Positions 6,722-14,324 of a stretch of DNA of 64,000 nt are shown here, piece after piece. Every line of letters begins with the position of its first letter. Within the stretch, counting starts at the first letter, position 1. A program made the position numbers and the translations under genes. A model generated the notes under the pieces. It was given only the letters and a program-made list of their open reading frames with translations. It was not told where the DNA came from and ran no database searches. Source of the DNA: a virus. Where the stretch lies: the IMG/VR virus record IMGVR_UViG_3300023179_000020; one strand, given 5' to 3'.

Positions 6722-8611
6722 ATGGCTGATACAAGTATCTTTACAAGGTTAAGAAAATTATTCTCAACTGATGTTATAATCCGCAATGCTGGTGGTAATC
6801 AGTTAAAAGTAATGGATGTGAATAGCATTCAAAAAAGTGGAGAATTTCAAACCAATGCTTTAGTTGACAGATACAACCGAATCTATTCAAGCAACAGTAC
6901 ATCTTTATTTGGAGCCCAATTAAATCTTAACTGGAGATACCTTCGTACTCAAGTATACTCAGATTACGATGCAATGGATACAGATGCTATTGTAGCCTCT
7001 GCTTTAGACATTATAGCTGATGAATGTACTCTTAAAAATGACATGGGAGAAGTACTTCAAATCAAAAGCAGCAACGAAGACACACAAAAAATACTTTATA
7101 ATTTGTTCTATGATGTGTTAAACATTGAGTTTAATTTGTGGTCATGGATTAGACAAATGTGTAAGTATGGTGATTTCTTTTTAAAATTAGAAATTGCTGA
7201 AAAATTTGGAGTATACAATGTTATCCCTTACATGGCTTACCACATCATGAGAGAAGAAAATTATGACCCTGCCAACCCAGCTGAAGTAAGATTTGCTTTC
7301 TCACCAGATGGTTTTTCAGGTGGTTCTACAGGTTTTTATGGTGTGACAGGTAAAGGAACATATAGTCCTAACAAAAATGATAAAAATATCTATTTTGATA
7401 ATTATGAAATGGCTCATTTTAGACTAGTAGCTGATACTAATTATCTTCCTTATGGTCGTTCATACTTAGAACCAGCACGTAAATTGTTTAAACAATACAT
7501 TTTGATGGAAGATGCTATGCTGATTCATCGTATTGTTCGTGCCCCTGAAAAAAGAATATTTTACATAAATGTAGGTTCTATTCCTCCTAATGAAGTTGAA
7601 AACTTTATGCAAAAGACAATTTCACAGATGAAAAGAACACCATTCATCGACCCACAAACTGGTGAATATAATTTAAAGTATAATTTACAAAATTCATTAG
7701 AAGACTTTTACATTCCAGTTAGAGGAAACGATACAACAACTAAAATTGAACCTACAAAAGGTTTAGATTATACAGCAATTGAAGACGTTACTTACTTAAG
7801 GGATAAATTATTTGCTGCTTTAAAAGTTCCTAAAGCATTTATGGGTTATGAAAAAGACTTAACCGGTAAAGCAACATTAGCAGCAGAAGACATTCGTTTT
7901 GCTCGTACAATTGATAGACTACAACGCATTATACTTTCAGAATTATACAAAATTGCATTAGTACATTTGTATACTCAAGGTTATAGAAACGAAGCATTAA
8001 CCAATTTTGAATTATCATTAACTACTCCTTCAATCATTTATGATCAAGAAAGAATAGCGTTAATGAGAGAAAAAGTATCATTAGCAAAAGACATTGTTGA
8101 CGGTAAATTATTACCTACAGATTGGATTTATGATAACATTTTCCACTTAAGTGAAGACCAATACGATGAATACAGAGATTTAATTGTTGAAGACCAAAAA
8201 CGAATCTTTAGGTTTAAACAAATTGAAAATGAAGGAAACGACCCATTAGAATCTGGCAAATCATATGGTACACCTCATGACTTAGCTGCTTTATACGGGG
8301 CAGGAAGAAACAATATGGGAGTACCTGACGGATACGATAAAGATGAAATATTAGGAAGACCAACCGAAAAATCATCAACTATGGGTACTCAACAAAATGC
8401 TTTAGGAAAAGACAGATTAGGAAGCATGGGTATGAAAAAAGGTGATGCTACAGGTGAAGATGCATCTATAAAAAACAGTTTTAAAGGAGGATCCCCACTA
8501 GCCTTAGAAACTAAATTAAAAAATAAATCATTGTTAGAGTCTTTAGACAAAAAGTTGTCTATTAAAAAAGAAGATTCTTCACTGTTAGATGAATCTCAAA
8601 TACGAGAATAA
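6722..8611 (+). CDS. Portal protein (T4 gp20-like)
   Basis: MEDAMLIHRIVRAPEKRIFYI, EDFYIPVRG, ALKVPK motifs; follows terminase. Confidence 0.93.
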   Translation: MADTSIFTRLRKLFSTDVIIRNAGGNQLKVMDVNSIQKSGEFQTNALVDRYNRIYSSNSTSLFGAQLNLNWRYLRTQVYSDYDAMDTDAIVASALDIIADECTLKNDMGEVLQIKSSNEDTQKILYNLFYDVLNIEFNLWSWIRQMCKYGDFFLKLEIAEKFGVYNVIPYMAYHIMREENYDPANPAEVRFAFSPDGFSGGSTGFYGVTGKGTYSPNKNDKNIYFDNYEMAHFRLVADTNYLPYGRSYLEPARKLFKQYILMEDAMLIHRIVRAPEKRIFYINVGSIPPNEVENFMQKTISQMKRTPFIDPQTGEYNLKYNLQNSLEDFYIPVRGNDTTTKIEPTKGLDYTAIEDVTYLRDKLFAALKVPKAFMGYEKDLTGKATLAAEDIRFARTIDRLQRIILSELYKIALVHLYTQGYRNEALTNFELSLTTPSIIYDQERIALMREKVSLAKDIVDGKLLPTDWIYDNIFHLSEDQYDEYRDLIVEDQKRIFRFKQIENEGNDPLESGKSYGTPHDLAALYGAGRNNMGVPDGYDKDEILGRPTEKSSTMGTQQNALGKDRLGSMGMKKGDATGEDASIKNSFKGGSPLALETKLKNKSLLESLDKKLSIKKEDSSLLDESQIRE

Positions 8612-8649: not shown

Positions 8650-9504
8650 ATGGTAATTAAACATTCAAAGTACAAAAATACTGGGATCCTTTTTGAACTA
8701 CTTGTTAGACAAATTACAGCTGATACTTTATCAGGTGATGCTTCCCCAGCTACTACCATTTTAAAAAAATACTTTACTAAAACTGAATTAGGAAGAGAGT
8801 ATAAGTTGTATGAAAGCTTTTTTAAGCATACTAATATTAGTGAGGCTAAAGCTGATATGGTTATAACAACTCTTGTTGAAAGTTCAAAGTATTTAAACCG
8901 TTCTATACTAAAAAGACAAAAATATAATTTGATTAAAGAGATTAAGGCGCATTACAATTTAGAAGAGTTTTTTAAAACTAAACTTCCTAATTATAAAGCA
9001 CAAGCCGCTTTATTTACTCTTTTAGAAGTGTATAACAGTGAAAACTTATCCAACCCAAATCAAATTATAGAAAATAAAACCGCGCTTTTAGAATTTTTAA
9101 CTAAAGGACCTATTAACAAAACAGAAGTTAAAAACAATATTTTAGAAGAATTTAAACATCAAGATAAAGATATTCGTGTTTTAGCATATAGAGTACTACT
9201 TGAAAAATTTAATGACAAATACTCAAATTTAAATTCAAACCAAAAAATCATATTAAAAGAATTTATAAACAGTGTTGATAATACTCCCAAATTAAAAGAA
9301 TTTTACAACACTAAAGTATTTGAAATTAAAACCCAATTATCAGTACTTAACAAATCAGTTTCTAACCCTGCCACTAAAATAAAAATCAACGAAGTAATAA
9401 ATATTTTACCTGTTTTAAGCAAAAACGACAGAATTAATGATGACCAATTAGTAAATCTTTTACAATACTGTGAATTGATAGAAGAATTAAAAATTGTAAA
9501 ATGA
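8650..9504 (+). CDS. Helical head-module protein (putative prohead core component)
   Basis: 284 aa between portal and protease; ATATTTATA 8622-8630. Confidence 0.5.
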   Translation: MVIKHSKYKNTGILFELLVRQITADTLSGDASPATTILKKYFTKTELGREYKLYESFFKHTNISEAKADMVITTLVESSKYLNRSILKRQKYNLIKEIKAHYNLEEFFKTKLPNYKAQAALFTLLEVYNSENLSNPNQIIENKTALLEFLTKGPINKTEVKNNILEEFKHQDKDIRVLAYRVLLEKFNDKYSNLNSNQKIILKEFINSVDNTPKLKEFYNTKVFEIKTQLSVLNKSVSNPATKIKINEVINILPVLSKNDRINDDQLVNLLQYCELIEELKIVK

Positions 9505-10004
9505 ATAAAAAAGACCAAATACGTGAATTAATTCAAAAGCGTTTAAAAGAAATAAGCGCTACAGGCACTGGTGCTTCTTTTACTGCTGGTACTGGTGCTA
9601 ATTATGCTACACCTAATGCTTTTAATCCAAATAAAAAGGCTAAAGGTGCTAAAAACATTTATTATTACAAATTAGGATTCAAACCAGTAAACCAAAAAGC
9701 TTTAAATAAAAAGGCTAAAGGCATTGAAGTAAAACATTTGTGGGAAGAAGAAACACCTAAATTTGACATTGAAGGATTTGTAAGTGCTTTACAAACTGAT
9801 AATGAAGAATTAAAAAAATACATAGCAGGACGTTTAGGAGACTTTGATTTACTTGCTAGCAAATTAAAAGAACTTATTGAATTAATACAAGAAGCTAAAA
9901 AAGAAACAATAAACAGTTACAGAGAAAATCCTGAATTTAAAGCTGTTTATGGTACAGATTTAGCAATTTCATTAATAGACGACACTATAAAACTATTTAC
10001 ATAA
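9501..10004 (+). CDS. Hypothetical head-module protein
   Basis: IRELIQKRLKE N-terminal tag, YATPNAF motif. Confidence 0.5.
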   Translation: MNKKDQIRELIQKRLKEISATGTGASFTAGTGANYATPNAFNPNKKAKGAKNIYYYKLGFKPVNQKALNKKAKGIEVKHLWEEETPKFDIEGFVSALQTDNEELKKYIAGRLGDFDLLASKLKELIELIQEAKKETINSYRENPEFKAVYGTDLAISLIDDTIKLFT

Positions 10005-10005
10005 A

Positions 10006-11271
10006 ATGAGAAATACATTACAAGAACAATATAACCTTATTAAAGAAGGTAAAGGTAATAAACAGCAATTTTTTAAATCTGCTCGTCATTTATTCCCTAA
10101 TTTAATTACTCCTGTTAACACATTAAATGATGCTGTTACCATCCTTAAAAACAAAGGTATCATTAGTGAAATGTTTGTAGGAGGAGGTGTAGTTACTAAA
10201 GGTAAAACACCTGATTGGTTTTCTATTTTTAAAGAAAACATAACTGAGTATGGAGAAGACTCAGGTGGACAAGATATGACATACGGAATGTATAATAGAT
10301 CATCAGCCCGTAAAAATCAAGGCATTCAAGACTTTATAAATAAAGGAAAAGAAGATTATTATGATGATGTACCATATGAAGCATGTCCATATGAAGATGG
10401 TTATAATAAATATTATAAAGCAGATTTAGCTAAATTATGGCAAATGGGATGGAAAGAAGCAGAAATATCAAGCAATGAAGAAAACATAACTGAATTATCA
10501 GGAAAATTTGGTTCTAAAGAAGAAGTTACCGTTATTAATAATAAAACTGGTAAAAAAGCTAAAGCAATGATTACCAGCACATCAATGAGTACAGGTACAG
10601 GAATAGAATATAATCTTAAATATTCTGGTGAAAAACCAAATGGATTCCCAGACACTATAAAAGATGATGATTTAGACTCAACATATTCTTTAAAAAGATT
10701 AACTGAAGCTAAAGAAGCTAAAGCTGAAGAAAAAGAAACTACTAAAGAAGTAACTGACATGGCAACACGTGGTTACGACTATAAAGACACTAAAAACATT
10801 GATAACATTTTTGGTACTGCGTTTTTAAAAGGATTCTATAGTGAAATGCAAGATCCAAAAAACGAGGACAAAACAGTTGAAGAATTAAAACAAATCGTAG
10901 CTAAAAATTTAGCTAAAGACTGTTTACACTATGTTAAAAACAGCCCATTTGGTGTTGAAGGAGCTGGTTATTCAGTAGAAGCACCTGGATTAGGCGAACC
11001 AAAACCTGCTAAAGGTAAACACAAATCTTCAGGTTATGGTGATTTAAAAGAATCAGTTTTACGTTCTCAAATTCATTTGTTAGTAAAAGAAGTATTAGCT
11101 GAAAGTAAAATTAGTGAAGATCAATTTGAAAAAGCACTTAAAATGCATAAAAAAGGCAAATCACCCGAAAACATAGCTAAAGAATTAAAAATTGATCCGG
11201 TTATATTAAAAAACCAACTAAAAAAATACAAAGAAGAAAAAGAAAATTTAAAAACAAGTGATAAGGGCTAA
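10006..11271 (+). CDS. Modular head/core protein with many [LIV]-x-E sites and an RMF-like internal module
   Basis: 421 aa; repeated ENITE; CPY...W..GW.EA segment. Confidence 0.55.
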   Translation: MRNTLQEQYNLIKEGKGNKQQFFKSARHLFPNLITPVNTLNDAVTILKNKGIISEMFVGGGVVTKGKTPDWFSIFKENITEYGEDSGGQDMTYGMYNRSSARKNQGIQDFINKGKEDYYDDVPYEACPYEDGYNKYYKADLAKLWQMGWKEAEISSNEENITELSGKFGSKEEVTVINNKTGKKAKAMITSTSMSTGTGIEYNLKYSGEKPNGFPDTIKDDDLDSTYSLKRLTEAKEAKAEEKETTKEVTDMATRGYDYKDTKNIDNIFGTAFLKGFYSEMQDPKNEDKTVEELKQIVAKNLAKDCLHYVKNSPFGVEGAGYSVEAPGLGEPKPAKGKHKSSGYGDLKESVLRSQIHLLVKEVLAESKISEDQFEKALKMHKKGKSPENIAKELKIDPVILKNQLKKYKEEKENLKTSDKG

Positions 11272-11273
11272 TT

Positions 11274-11882
11274 ATGAAACAAGTACTTATTGAAACCCAA
11301 ATATTTTCTGCTAAACCAGTTAAACTAGTTGAAGGTAAAGGTGGTAATAGCAATTTATTAGTTGAAGGAATACTAGCAACAGCCGAAGTAAAAAACGGTA
11401 ACGGCCGTTACTACTCAAAAGATTTATGGGAAAGAGAAATTAATAAGTACATGGAGAATGTAAAATCAAATCGTGCTTTAGGTGAACTAGACCATCCCGA
11501 TTCTCAAATCATCAATTTAAAAAACGTATCCCACAACATTAAAAAAATATGGTGGGATAATGATAATGTAATGGGAGCAATAGAAATTTTACCTACACCT
11601 TCAGGCAACATATTAGCAGCATTATTCCAAAACAACATTCCAGTAGGTGTATCATCACGTGGTATGGGCTCATTAAAACAAATGGGAGAAATAATGGAAG
11701 TACAAGACGATTTTGAATTGTTGTGTTTTGACTTTGTTTCTACCCCATCTAACCCAGGATCATTCATGCACCCAGTAGGACAAATACATGAAGGATTATC
11801 ATCTCCGATTAACCCATATTCTAAAGTTAATTCAATAGTAACTGAGATTCTTTGCGCAAACGGAACCTGTCCAATTTTTTAA
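11274..11882 (+). CDS. Prohead protease (T4 gp21-like)
   Basis: NGNGRYY, ALGELDHP, GVSSRGMGS, FDFVSTPS motifs. Confidence 0.93.
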   Translation: MKQVLIETQIFSAKPVKLVEGKGGNSNLLVEGILATAEVKNGNGRYYSKDLWEREINKYMENVKSNRALGELDHPDSQIINLKNVSHNIKKIWWDNDNVMGAIEILPTPSGNILAALFQNNIPVGVSSRGMGSLKQMGEIMEVQDDFELLCFDFVSTPSNPGSFMHPVGQIHEGLSSPINPYSKVNSIVTEILCANGTCPIF

Positions 11883-11932: not shown

Positions 11933-12607
11933 ATGCTAAAACTTTGCCCTACTTGTAATAAAACTAAAGAATTAATTGAGTTTAATAAAAATAAAAATCG
12001 TAAGGATGGTTATCAACGTGAATGTAAGAGTTGCTGTCATAATCATCATAACAAATATTATCATACTAAAAAATCTCCTCGTTTAAAAGAAAATATAAAA
12101 GAAGGACATAAAGTATGTACTAGTTGTAAACAAGAATTGTTACTAACTGAATTTAAACCAGGAAAAGGACGTTTTGGAGTCGGGGCAAATTGCAAAATAT
12201 GTTTTAATAAAAAATGGAATGATTATCAAAAAAGAACAGGCCAAAATAAAAAACATAACAAATTAAAACGTCAAACAGATATACAATGGAAACTTAAAGC
12301 TAATCTTAGAGGTAGATATTTAGACGCTCTTAAACGCCACACTTCAGGCGGCAAAGTAAACAAACATCACTCAGCTATAGATTTATTAGGTTGTAGTATA
12401 GAATTTTATAAACAATATTTAGAACAACAGTTTAAACCAGATATGAACTGGGAAAATCATGGAATACTATGGGAGATAGATCATATAAAGCCATGTGCTG
12501 TTTTTGATTTAACAAATTCTAAACACCAACAAGAATGTTTTAATTATACAAACACCCAACCTTTATATTACTCAGATAATAGAAGTAAAGGAGATAAATA
12601 TTTATAA
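11933..12607 (+). CDS. Free-standing HNH homing endonuclease with two Cys4 zinc-finger-like repeats
   Basis: CxxC...CxxC repeats; WEIDHIKPC...FNYTNTQPL...NRSKGDK; ATATTTATA 11911-11919. Confidence 0.85.
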   Translation: MLKLCPTCNKTKELIEFNKNKNRKDGYQRECKSCCHNHHNKYYHTKKSPRLKENIKEGHKVCTSCKQELLLTEFKPGKGRFGVGANCKICFNKKWNDYQKRTGQNKKHNKLKRQTDIQWKLKANLRGRYLDALKRHTSGGKVNKHHSAIDLLGCSIEFYKQYLEQQFKPDMNWENHGILWEIDHIKPCAVFDLTNSKHQQECFNYTNTQPLYYSDNRSKGDKYL

Positions 12608-12609
12608 TT

Positions 12610-12783
12610 ATGGAAAAACAAGAATTAAACGAAGAATTTTTTAAAATGCAAAAACTTGCAGGTTTAATTACTGAAGAAGAATATAAAGCTAGATTATGGT
12701 ATAAACAATATTCTGAAAATATATCTAAAGCCTTAGATGATTTAAAACAAACATTAAAAAATGAAGGCTATGATATTAAATGA
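12610..12783 (+). CDS. 57-aa tagged protein absent from the ORF track (MEKQELNEEFFKMQKLAGLITEEEYKARLWY...)
   Basis: Translated by hand; ATATTTATA 12598-12606; carries MQKLAG tag. Confidence 0.7.
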   Translation: MEKQELNEEFFKMQKLAGLITEEEYKARLWYKQYSENISKALDDLKQTLKNEGYDIK

Positions 12784-13018
12784 AGATAATAAATCTATTT
12801 TAGATCTAGTAAATTATATAGATTCTAAAATTGTAGCTCTTCGTAATGATAACAAATTTTCTAAAAATACTATAGATAGTTTATCTAATTTGTATAATTT
12901 AACTGTTGGAGAGTGGATGAGTAAAAATTACATAACTGATATTGAACCTGGTTCTAATGAAGAAGAAGAAATAGTAAATAAACTTTTAGAAGTAATCGAT
13001 TTTTTAAATAAACTTTAA
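12761..13018 (+). CDS. Hypothetical acidic protein (possible start at 12770, MILNE...)
   Basis: 85-aa ORF overlapping the previous gene in the +1 frame. Confidence 0.5.
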   Translation: MKAMILNEDNKSILDLVNYIDSKIVALRNDNKFSKNTIDSLSNLYNLTVGEWMSKNYITDIEPGSNEEEEIVNKLLEVIDFLNKL

Positions 13019-13214: not shown

Positions 13215-14324
13215 ATGAACAGAGAAATGCTTAAAGAAGCAATTGCTGAAGCTAAAACTATTAGAGAAACAGCAATTGAAAGCGCAAAAATCGCCCTTGA
13301 AGAAGCTTTTACTCCCCAATTAACAGCTATGTTTGCTGAAAAGTTAAACGAGTTGGAATTAGAGGAAAAAGAAGAAAAGGACGAAACAAATGAAATGTAC
13401 GGTATGGAAGAAGAAGGATTAGAAGAAAATTTTAATCTTGAAGAACTTCTTGCCGAGTTAGAGGAAGCTGAATTACAAGCTGAAGCAGAAGACATGAAAA
13501 CAGAAAATCTTGATGAAGATTTAATGCTTGAAGAAATGTCTGACGAGGAAATTGAAGAACTTGTAAAATCAGTAATCGACGACATGATTGCATCTGGTAA
13601 GCTTATGGCTGGTGAAGAAGCCGAAGACGAGGACATGGACATGGATGACATGGACATGGATGATATGGACATGGGTGACGAGGAAGAAATTGAAGACGAA
13701 GAAGAAGAAGAAATTGATGAAGACATCAATCTTGAAGAACTTCTTGCTGAAATTGATTCTGAGAAAAAAGAAGTAGTAAACGAAGAATTTTTTGATCCTG
13801 AAACTTTAAAATTAGTAGCTCAAGCTGCTGAATTTCTTAATGTAAGTAAAGATGCTATAATGGGAATGATAGCAGGATTACCTGGAGCAGCAGTTGCTGC
13901 TGCGTTTTTAAGAGCTACAATGAAAGCTAAAAAAGAAGCAAAAAGTGGAAAAGTTGATGAAACAACTGATACTACTGAAATGGAAGAAACAATTAACGAG
14001 TTGAGAAATGAGTTAAACGAAGTAAACCTTTTAAATGCTAAACTTCTTTATACCAACAAAATCTTCAAAGCTAAGAATCTTACCGAATCAGAAAAAATTA
14101 AGGTTTTAAACACATTTGACAAAGCAGAAACTGTTAAAGAAGTTAAACTCGTATTTGAAACTCTAACTGAATCTTTTAAAACTACTACAGTTAAAAAGAA
14201 CCCAATTAAAGAATCATTAGGATCAGCTTCTAGAACAATTGCCCCTGCTACCCCTAAACAACCAATAATCGAGGTTAACAGCGCGTTTGCTCGTATGCAA
14301 CAACTCGCAGGCCTCAAAAAGTAA
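13215..14324 (+). CDS. Prohead scaffold/core protein (T4 gp22 position)
   Basis: Highly acidic coiled coil immediately before the MCP; many [LI]-x-E sites; ends RMQQLAGLKK. Confidence 0.85.
   Translation: MNREMLKEAIAEAKTIRETAIESAKIALEEAFTPQLTAMFAEKLNELELEEKEEKDETNEMYGMEEEGLEENFNLEELLAELEEAELQAEAEDMKTENLDEDLMLEEMSDEEIEELVKSVIDDMIASGKLMAGEEAEDEDMDMDDMDMDDMDMGDEEEIEDEEEEEIDEDINLEELLAEIDSEKKEVVNEEFFDPETLKLVAQAAEFLNVSKDAIMGMIAGLPGAAVAAAFLRATMKAKKEAKSGKVDETTDTTEMEETINELRNELNEVNLLNAKLLYTNKIFKAKNLTESEKIKVLNTFDKAETVKEVKLVFETLTESFKTTTVKKNPIKESLGSASRTIAPATPKQPIIEVNSAFARMQQLAGLKK

Follow-up and report, generated by a model that had tools for sequence, protein, structure and literature searches.

Why should a small domain resembling the ribosome modulation factor (RMF) lie in the middle of a phage head protein? 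The question is raised by a stretch of 64,000 nucleotides (IMG/VR virus record IMGVR_UViG_3300023179_000020; in the following, the window), which comes from an uncultured T4-like myophage of water. In the head-core region of this phage, an open reading frame (ORF) at positions 10006-11271 encodes a protein of 421 amino acids (aa), P0001; like the portal gene and the protease gene on either side of it, it lies on the + strand. An earlier note on this DNA had pointed out an RMF-like module in this protein and had proposed that an RMF peptide was inserted at a run of protease-site codons, so that it could be cut out during head maturation and delivered at infection, possibly to act on ribosomes. 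Our work leads to a broader idea, which the balance of probability favours by a little: The ORF would encode a carrier polyprotein of the prohead core holding mobile cargo cassettes that are freed by a protease and probably ejected with the DNA, and the DNA encoding the cut sites would serve as the joints at which cassettes are exchanged.

The protein consists of an N domain, cassette A, cassette B, a linker, a C domain and a tail cassette. We propose that the conserved N and C domains form the carrier, and that the small folded units between them and after the C domain are the cargo. The N domain (aa 1-81, 10006-10248) has the conserved triplets LQE (5-7) and IKE (12-14) near its start, with L5, Q6, L11, I12 and E14 invariant or near-invariant, and ends in FKENITE. 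As far as its sequence goes, its start with LQE7 and IKE14 is a candidate propeptide or a leader similar to capsid-targeting sequences. Cassette A (aa 82-163, 10249-10494; 9.6 kDa, isoelectric point (pI) 4.4) is the RMF-like module, which is present in some relatives and absent from others. It begins with a disordered head, YGEDSGGQDMTYGMY... (10249-10305), in which the predicted local distance difference test (pLDDT) stays below 50 for module residues 1-19, followed by an Rmf/CrpP-fold core (aa 101-154, 10306-10467) made of a helix, a CPY loop with a 7-residue insertion, and a helix with W-x-x-GW-x-EA. The second module that the earlier note had seen behind it, LSGKFG...KRLTE, corresponds to cassette B (aa 164-234, 10495-10707), a small beta-rich domain (strands modelled at 171-231 with pLDDT >90) that ends in LTE and for which we found no Pfam, NCBIfam or PDB match. 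Cassette B is the sole cassette in the relatives P0002 and P0003 and is paired with a different partner in P0004. The conserved acidic/basic linker AKEAKAEEKETTKE (10708-10749) lies in a region predicted to be disordered (aa 234-257) and leads into the C domain (aa 249-366, 10750-11103), which closes with the amphipathic helix LKESVLRSQIHLLVKEVLAE. The variable tail cassette (aa 367-421, 11104-11268) is a basic, helix-turn-helix (HTH)-like unit of three helices (pLDDT 89-94) with weak matches to HTH_40 (E 0.011), HTH_7 (E 0.058) and PHROG 3910 (E 0.005).

An AlphaFold model of full-length P0001, built with 75 family sequences, agrees with the suggestion that the gene looks like a polyprotein. 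The confidently modelled units, i. e. residues 1-55 of the N domain (three helices, pLDDT 82-94), 165-233 of cassette B, the C-domain helices 265-311 and 349-365, and 371-417 of the tail, are parted by low-confidence linkers, and all candidate cleavage sites (ITE81, ITE163, LTE234 and AES/ISE at 366-371) fall into these linkers. Foldseek with this model gave no PDB match at E <=0.001, so that the N domain, the C domain and cassette B have no recognised fold; against BFVD it returned only uncharacterised phage homologues. PHROGs had nothing for cassette A, the N domain or the C domain, and a Pfam search with 75 family members found no family at E 0.001 (best E 0.0016). An internal peptidase domain was not found in the carrier by the Pfam and PHROG searches.

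The division into constant and exchangeable parts is evident from the family as a whole. A word-index search of metagenome proteins gave >3,400 carrier homologues. Among the 119 best ones, 117-119 cover the N domain through aa 79 and 112-118 cover the C domain from aa 249 to 364, as compared to only 7-20 for aa 86-220. Coverage falls to 105 by aa 366 and drops beyond it, the last 55 residues being variable. The middle is empty in 78 of the 132 proteins that have both conserved domains: In the commonest form without a middle insert, ...IFKENITE is followed by AAKEAKAEEKETTKE, and in the cassette-free form the linker AKEAKAEEKETTKE stands immediately after ENITE. Other members carry one to several unrelated cassettes at this point, and the cassettes across the family end in NITE, NLKE, KLKE, SLHE, KLNE, ILSE, NLRE, GLTE, RLTE or LISE. 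The tails behind the C domain have a median length of 104 aa and reach 746 aa in the 132 proteins. A helix of the type RSLIRNIIKEELNE, (S/K)xLRSLIRNIIKEELNE, closes the C domain (11047-11103, aa 348-366) and recurs before cassettes in long relatives; it precedes cassette A in 9 carriers. A shortened version is the leader of free-standing cassette genes, including a neighbouring divergent gene at the locus L086. This amphipathic helix may be a core-binding or targeting element.

Cassette A is bracketed by two copies of a repeat. The 16-mer AAGAAAACATAACTGA occurs exactly only at 10232-10247 and 10478-10493 of the window; with up to two mismatches there are five sites, two of them the exact ones, where 0.28 are expected by chance. 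Both copies are in frame and encode (K/E)-E-N-I-T-E: copy 1 the end of KENITE with the candidate cleavage site ITE81, and copy 2 EENITE with ITE163. The pair (direct-repeat family D11, spacing 246) thus brackets a unit of 82 codons (aa 82-163, 10249-10494) holding the CPY and W-x-x-GW-x-EA motifs, and we could reproduce the positions, the reading frame and the spacing that had been reported for it. By itself, such a repeat is weak evidence because short A-rich repeats are common in this DNA, which has a GC content of about 29% (12 families in 10.5 kb); one further exact repeat of at least 16 nucleotides (nt) was found in the 10.5 kb scanned. The pair gains its meaning from two close relatives, the Logan assembly L083 and the ENA sequence L084, which encode P0003 and P0002, respectively, and whose proteins are 96-99% identical to P0001 over the shared parts. 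In both, the flanking DNA matches the window save for a few positions, exactly 246 bp are missing, and a single copy of the 16-mer is left. The aligned orthologues therefore show clean presence and absence of the module at the repeat. Of the proposal that an RMF peptide was inserted here, the discrete cassette and the clean empty site hold, but insertion as the direction of the event does not follow: Deletion by recombination between the two copies would produce an identical empty site. An intein or homing element was also considered for the 246-bp unit and was rejected, since neither nuclease nor splicing motifs occur in the unit, which encodes a small folded domain that is conserved.

About 30 proteins proved to contain cassette A, in three kinds of position. 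It stands between the N and C domains in eight proteins including P0001, after the C domain in 16, and otherwise in short proteins. Among the latter, P0141 is a true free-standing ORF of 98 aa with a 21-aa leader ending in IKE, and P0145, encoded four genes 5' of the portal gene of a 16-kb contig, starts with a leader of 10 aa, MKTFRRLINE. This leader is similar in form to what is presumably the targeting sequence of T4 IPIII, MKTYQEFIAE, a resemblance that we take as a lead and not as a test. P0121 had appeared to be another free-standing copy, and was rejected, since it is only a piece of a carrier gene broken by a frameshift; the protease gene of the same contig is likewise split over three frames. 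Two further loci, L087 and L088, bear on the movement of the cassette: Compared to the window, amino acid identity is 90-91% for the portal protein, 64-65% for the N domain, 94% for cassette A and 80-82% for the C domain. The other genes of these loci, a 284-aa ORF (81%), a 167-aa ORF (82%) and the protease (85-87%), are likewise far less diverged than the N domain (10006-10248). The low identity of the N domain points to allele replacement or to its fast evolution, as judged by these comparisons. At the DNA level, identity is about 70% up to the ENITE-coding stretch ATTTTTAAAGAAAACATAACTGAG, where it rises to about 94%, and homology stops directly past the WKEAE codons; these two features identify the site-coding stretch as a recombination joint.

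The disordered head YGEDSGGQDMTYGMY occurs in other contexts, too: In P0146-P0150 and at the locus L090 it precedes unrelated, non-RMF domains. The head, YGEDSGGQDMT(Y/W)G(M/I)Y (10249-10305; L090:4001-4069), always stands directly after [LIVM]xE, heads at least one unrelated cargo family, and varies less than the RMF-like core and the other domains behind it. A profile search with cassette A in 1.84 billion representative proteins yielded eight clusters with the module and five with the disordered head alone, and reached no bona fide RMF. IMG/VR holds only four loci with the module, and tblastn with the module and with E. coli RMF found no match in 50,697 cultured phage records. In the same records, the full-length carrier was matched only with its first 55 residues, in Flavobacterium phage immuto.

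The junctions between the units have the features of candidate protease sites. In line with the protease-site codon run proposed in the earlier note, (L/I)xE triplets are encoded there, and YG.DSG.QDM follows directly after [LIVM]xE in 39 of 39 copies that have 30 distinct upstream 8-mers; this motif has a background of 2.8% of positions in these proteins. In all 39 junctions Glu is invariant at P1 and P3 is L, I or V, whereas P2 varies (N, Q, K, T, R). The constancy of P1 and P3 next to a varied P2 would be expected if the motif is under selection, more than if it is simply shared by descent. A leader or linker that ends in (L/I)xE directly before the putative mature part is thus a regular pattern, which is also seen in LQE7 and IKE14. 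Moreover, 25% of the internal BLAST block boundaries lie at most three residues from a site, as compared to 8% for random positions. The major capsid protein of the window has LVVE followed by TSQTG, in what we take to be the place at which T4 gp23 is trimmed. T4 gp21 cuts after Leu/Ile-x-Glu. More generally, gp21 and its homologues recognise a short motif and cleave on the C-terminal side of its Glu, and residues 8 and 10 of the ten-residue targeting sequence control the processing (PMC9026906).

A candidate protease is encoded next door. The prohead protease gene (11274-11882) starts 2 nt 3' of the carrier gene, and its product is a T4 gp21 homologue of the peptidase family S77 (PF03420, E 1.7e-30; PHROG 207, E 1.2e-57) that is 34% identical to T4 gp21 (E 8e-22) and has kept the GELxHP and GVSSRG blocks of the catalytic region. 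The head-core gene block opens with the gene for the T4-type portal protein, a gp20 homologue (6722-8611; Pfam Portal_T4 PF07230, E 6.6e-68; PHROG 213), which is followed by a 284-aa ORF and a 167-aa ORF without assigned family, the carrier gene and the protease gene. Further 3' there are an HNH/EndoVII-like gene, a gene for an acidic scaffold-like protein and the gene for the major capsid protein. The order from portal to protease is also present in five metagenome contigs and in Flavobacterium phage vB_FspM_immuto, the closest cultured relative (capsid protein 52.8% identical), in which portal, 284-aa ORF, small ORF, the carrier orthologue immuto26A_200 and protease follow each other. The view of the module as part of a head protein is borne out by this context. 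The gene order of T4 is 20-67-68-21-22-23; by this correspondence, the carrier occupies the position of the core genes 67 and 68. Homology to their products was considered for the carrier and rejected, with hhalign probabilities below 1%.

On this basis, we suggest the following sequence of events. Each cassette would be bounded by (L/I/V/M)xE, the kind of motif cut by T4-type gp21 proteases, and as the head matures, the gp21 homologue encoded by the neighbouring gene would cleave the chain at these points. Cutting after these motifs would yield peptides that start, for example, with YGEDSGG or YGEDSGGQDMTYGMYNR, and the freed pieces would be cassette A with 82 aa, cassette B with 71 aa and the basic HTH-like tail, about 9.6, 7.7 and 6 kDa, respectively. 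These pieces are similar in size to T4 IPI*; by this similarity they probably remain in the capsid and leave it with the DNA at infection. The DNA of the cut sites would have a second role as a recombination joint, at which related phages gain, lose and swap cassettes, with the 16-nt ENITE repeat as one such joint. Cassette A, placed behind the disordered head YGEDSGGQDMTYGMY, would belong to the Rmf/CrpP fold superfamily as a diverged and acidic domain.

Several points weigh against this idea. The [LIVM]xE motif may travel as part of cassette A, so that the 39 junctions are not fully independent cases. The (L/I)xE specificity assumed for the protease is borrowed by analogy from T4, and some gp21 homologues favour A-x-E or need little beyond Glu (PMC10052503, PMC9026906); gp245 of SPN3US, for instance, prefers A-x-E (PMC10052503). 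The T4 proteins encoded at the gene position of the carrier, gp67 and gp68, are broken down into small peptides, which then exit from the prohead (PMC9958956), and the carrier family alignment has no homology to gp68 or gp67 (hhalign probabilities 0.1% and 0.3%, respectively). Moreover, cassette A differs in charge from the T4 internal proteins: It is acidic and they are basic. Finally, the data show the anatomy of the gene, the presence/absence polymorphism, the mosaicism, the conserved sites and the fold, and cleavage, capsid retention, ejection and the target of the cargo are what we infer for this lineage.

Comparison to known systems helps to place the carrier. In T4, Alt and the internal proteins are sent to the core, undergo trimming by gp21 and are then injected; the internal proteins have a conserved targeting sequence, behind which they are hypervariable (PMC3012670, PMC9958956, PMC9026906). 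The system described here resembles IPI, IPII, IPIII and Alt in its head-gene context, in a leader ending in (L/I)xE, in the nearby gp21-type protease, in the small size of the predicted mature parts, and in a hypervariable cargo behind a conserved targeting or processing sequence that is also a recombination joint. Unlike them, it has several putative cargos per polypeptide on a carrier of two domains, and its candidate sites lie inside the chain as well as near the N-terminus. The carrier is known here from its sequence, which is not similar to that of the internal proteins, gp67 or gp68. With the polyvalent proteins, i. e. multidomain proteins whose genes stand among those for the virion and which are expected to enter the capsid and to be injected along with the DNA (PMC5512222), the carrier shares the combination of unrelated domains in one polypeptide and the gene context; its cassettes are shuffled among relatives. 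In contrast to these proteins, it has small domains without a recognisable enzymatic or anti-defence family or a built-in peptidase, and it has a conserved carrier part and a separate neighbouring prohead protease as the candidate processor. In the phiKZ-like giant phages (SPN3US gp53/gp54, 201phi2-1), head proteins have several Glu sites each at which a gp21 homologue cleaves them, and the mature parts are ejected (PMC10052503, PMC9026906). Cutting after Glu at multiple sites by a gp21-type enzyme is also predicted here; however, the parts removed from those ejection and inner-body proteins are long, discarded propeptides, whereas the pieces between the sites of the carrier are conserved, folded and mobile.

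The identity of cassette A rests on several kinds of searches. The curated models all recognise P0001 below their cut-offs: Pfam RMF PF04957 with 11.3 bits (E 0.37, cut-off 27.9), NCBIfam NF041886 (Rmf_CrpP_fam) with 17.8 bits (E 0.0019, cut-off 28), and NF041887 (Rmf_like_phage) with 14.8 bits (E 0.014, cut-off 40). Among 32 diverged copies, 27 match NF041886, 17 match NF041887 and 18 match Pfam RMF (counting matches at E up to 1), with best E values of 7.1e-4 for the NCBIfam models and 0.018 for Pfam RMF; no other family recurs in more than two copies. Profile comparison with hhalign gave a probability of 48% (P 1.8e-4) against 50 enterobacterial RMF sequences and of 85% (P 6.6e-6, score 31.0) against a broad profile of 80 sequences, in which the enterobacterial set was joined by 29 usable RMF sequences drawn across the phylum; the reversed alignment scored 8.5 and 30 column shuffles at most 19.3. 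In this alignment, the spacings from G to CPY and within W-x-x-GW-x-x-A are identical to those of RMF, with one 7-residue insertion after CPY. The equivalents of G16, P30, Y31, W40, G43, W44 and A47 are invariant in the 32 copies, that of C29 is kept in 28, and cassette A has 13 invariant residues in total. The AlphaFold model of the module, which rests on only seven sequences (pLDDT 74 overall, 82-92 in the core), has the two-helix fold of RMF with the CPY loop, the stacked Trp and the interface Gly. VIA-align with this predicted model placed RMF (4v8g_AV) first, with 52 of 53 residues aligned at a root-mean-square deviation of 1.8 Å and Z 6.3, a value in the range in which small helical folds can match by chance and which thus also counts among the points against our interpretation. 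Foldseek gave RMF first as well (2jrm and 9iot_y; target TM 0.60 and 0.67, E 3-4). With the module sequence, searches of PDB chains returned chance-level matches only, and no RMF. The ESM Atlas, with scores of 0.83-0.85 and one viral cluster in which 11% of the members have Pfam RMF, provides a lead only. Taken together, cassette A is very probably a true domain of the Rmf/CrpP superfamily; because all three models remain below their cut-offs, it is a distant relative and not a member of a curated family. The RMF-like module of the earlier note therefore stands at the superfamily level, as supported by profiles, hhalign and structure searches, but reaches no curated cut-off. Small Rmf-fold proteins in phages are already catalogued (NF041887). 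The members of NF041886 and NF041887, the best-scoring models for cassette A, are free-standing small proteins without assigned function, whereas cassette A sits between protease-type sites.

Does the fold imply an action on ribosomes? A freed and delivered RMF-fold peptide might sit on the 30S subunit near the anti-Shine-Dalgarno sequence and silence or reprogramme host translation, a proposal that we regard as unlikely. In RMF, G16, G23, G43, C29, P30, W40 and W44 are fold residues, R3, K5 and R11 are required for ribosome binding, and R45 contacts C1536 of the 16S rRNA and takes part in dimerisation (PMC8126665). Cassette A shares with RMF (PF04957; 4V8G, 2JRM, 9IOT) the two-helix fold, the CPY loop, the W-x-x-GW-x-x-A helix and the fold residues, of which seven equivalents are invariant in 32 copies. 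Moreover, Lys is found in 23 of the 32 copies at the position of K5 and in 26 at that of R45. A T4 prohead contains about 240-340 copies of gp67 and gp68 (PMC9958956); if the carrier were equally abundant, the amount delivered might be enough to have an effect in a small cell. However, the equivalent of R3 is basic in only two of the 32 copies, and that of R11 is Asp in 31. Cassette A has a net charge of -8 and a pI of 4.4, as compared to +6 and a median pI of 10.5 for RMF, and the core alone ranges from -4 to +3 across the family; the strongly basic character of RMF is thus missing, and of its four basic 16S-binding residues two are absent or have the opposite charge. In addition, the RMF-type profiles all stay under their cut-offs, and no bona fide RMF was reached among the 1.84 billion proteins. 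Finally, RMF is a free 55-aa stationary-phase protein described in Gammaproteobacteria (PMC8126665), whereas cassette A is embedded in a phage head protein, and the closest cultured relative of the phage infects Flavobacterium. Since the cassette is acidic and the equivalents of R3 and R11 are non-basic or reversed in charge, canonical binding to the ribosome is doubtful: The fold has been kept, but little is left of the charges on which binding to rRNA depends. The action on ribosomes suggested in the earlier note is therefore doubtful, and we see only a small chance that cassette A binds ribosomes in the manner of RMF. By what can be inferred from charge and contact residues, it is more likely that cassette A binds a host protein or a defence component rather than the 30S subunit. 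In a wider version of the proposal, about 100 or more copies of an RMF-fold effector per capsid would enter with the DNA and act on ribosomes, or on a ribosome-hibernation or defence factor recognising the RMF fold, prior to phage gene expression, with the carrier as a plug-in delivery platform and the protease sites as its joints; we consider this improbable.

The cassettes might instead have no role in the cell at all. As disposable core filler, cut up and expelled from the prohead or kept as inert counter-ion peptides in the course of maturation, they would tune core volume or assembly, an explanation to which we give a low probability. It draws on T4, in which gp22, gp67 and gp68 are degraded and the peptides exit the prohead (PMC9958956), on the position of the carrier in place of gp67 and gp68, and on the 78 of 132 family members without a middle cassette, which indicate that the cassettes are dispensable for assembly. 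Yet the cassettes are modelled as compact folded domains, cassette A has its 13 invariant residues and is 94% conserved where the carrier has 64%, and it also occurs as a separate gene with a putatively cleavable leader. This pattern points to selection on the cassette and is similar to that of the hypervariable internal-protein loci of T4 (PMC3012670).

It is also conceivable, and in our opinion quite unlikely, that the resemblance to RMF is due to chance or to convergence, with an unrelated small helix-loop-helix domain that packs Trp and Gly in the same way. The sub-threshold bit scores, the Foldseek E values, the model built from seven sequences and the ESM Atlas lead would all be compatible with this. 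Against it stand the three independent RMF-type models, which are the sole recurrent matches among the 32 copies, the clear distance of the hhalign score from its shuffled and reversed controls, the RMF-identical motif spacings, and the first rank of RMF in both structure searches. Very improbable, finally, is the absence of processing, with a head or core protein of several domains that stays in one piece, accepts insertions in its loops and has incidental LxE triplets in its Glu/Lys-rich sequence: [LIVM]xE is frequent and only a quarter of the block boundaries coincide with sites, but P1 Glu and P3 L/I/V are kept at every one of the 39 junctions despite the varied P2, standalone versions have short leaders ending in the motif right before YGEDSGG, and the adjoining gp21 homologue has retained its catalytic-region blocks.

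The known processed and injected head proteins of T4 and of giant phages are only single proteins with a removable leader. In the family described here, which counts more than 3,400 proteins, a single conserved core protein seems to act as a rack for cargo that can be exchanged. If this is confirmed, one could read directly from the carriers which proteins uncultured aquatic phages introduce at infection, there would be a natural model for putting foreign proteins into capsids, and the phage Rmf/CrpP-fold proteins of unassigned function would have their first testable context. The processing model can be tested by virion mass spectrometry, since the cultured phage immuto has the carrier at the same position.

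Some further features were seen around the carrier gene. Between the protease and scaffold genes of the window, the block at 11933-13018 consists of the HNH/EndoVII-like gene (PHROG 1035, E 7.8e-20) and two small ORFs. The close relative L083 has only about 200 bp at this place, which makes the block a second presence/absence polymorphism; it is probably a homing-endonuclease insertion. A 29-nt direct repeat (90% identical, 12614-12642 and 13765-13793) encodes (Q/E)(L/V)xNEEFF at the start of a 57-aa ORF and inside the scaffold gene, and is a possible further shared joint. In the 167-aa ORF (9501-10004), an N-terminal RLKE followed by ISATGTGASFTAGTG resembles LVVE followed by TSQTGTGATFTVGTG at the presumed maturation site of the capsid protein, and tblastn with capsid residues 41-79 matched the orthologue of this ORF in L087 with 46% identity. 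The same ORF has an exact 18-nt repeat at 9629 and 9704 that encodes NKKAKG. The motif (R/K)MQxLAG is present at 484 (ORF 79-729), at 12643 (ORF 12610-12783) and at 14292, the C-terminus of the scaffold ORF (13215-14324). A free-standing copy of cassette A on another contig, P0126, has a leader that includes RMQQLAG, i. e. the motif found at the end of the scaffold protein of the window.

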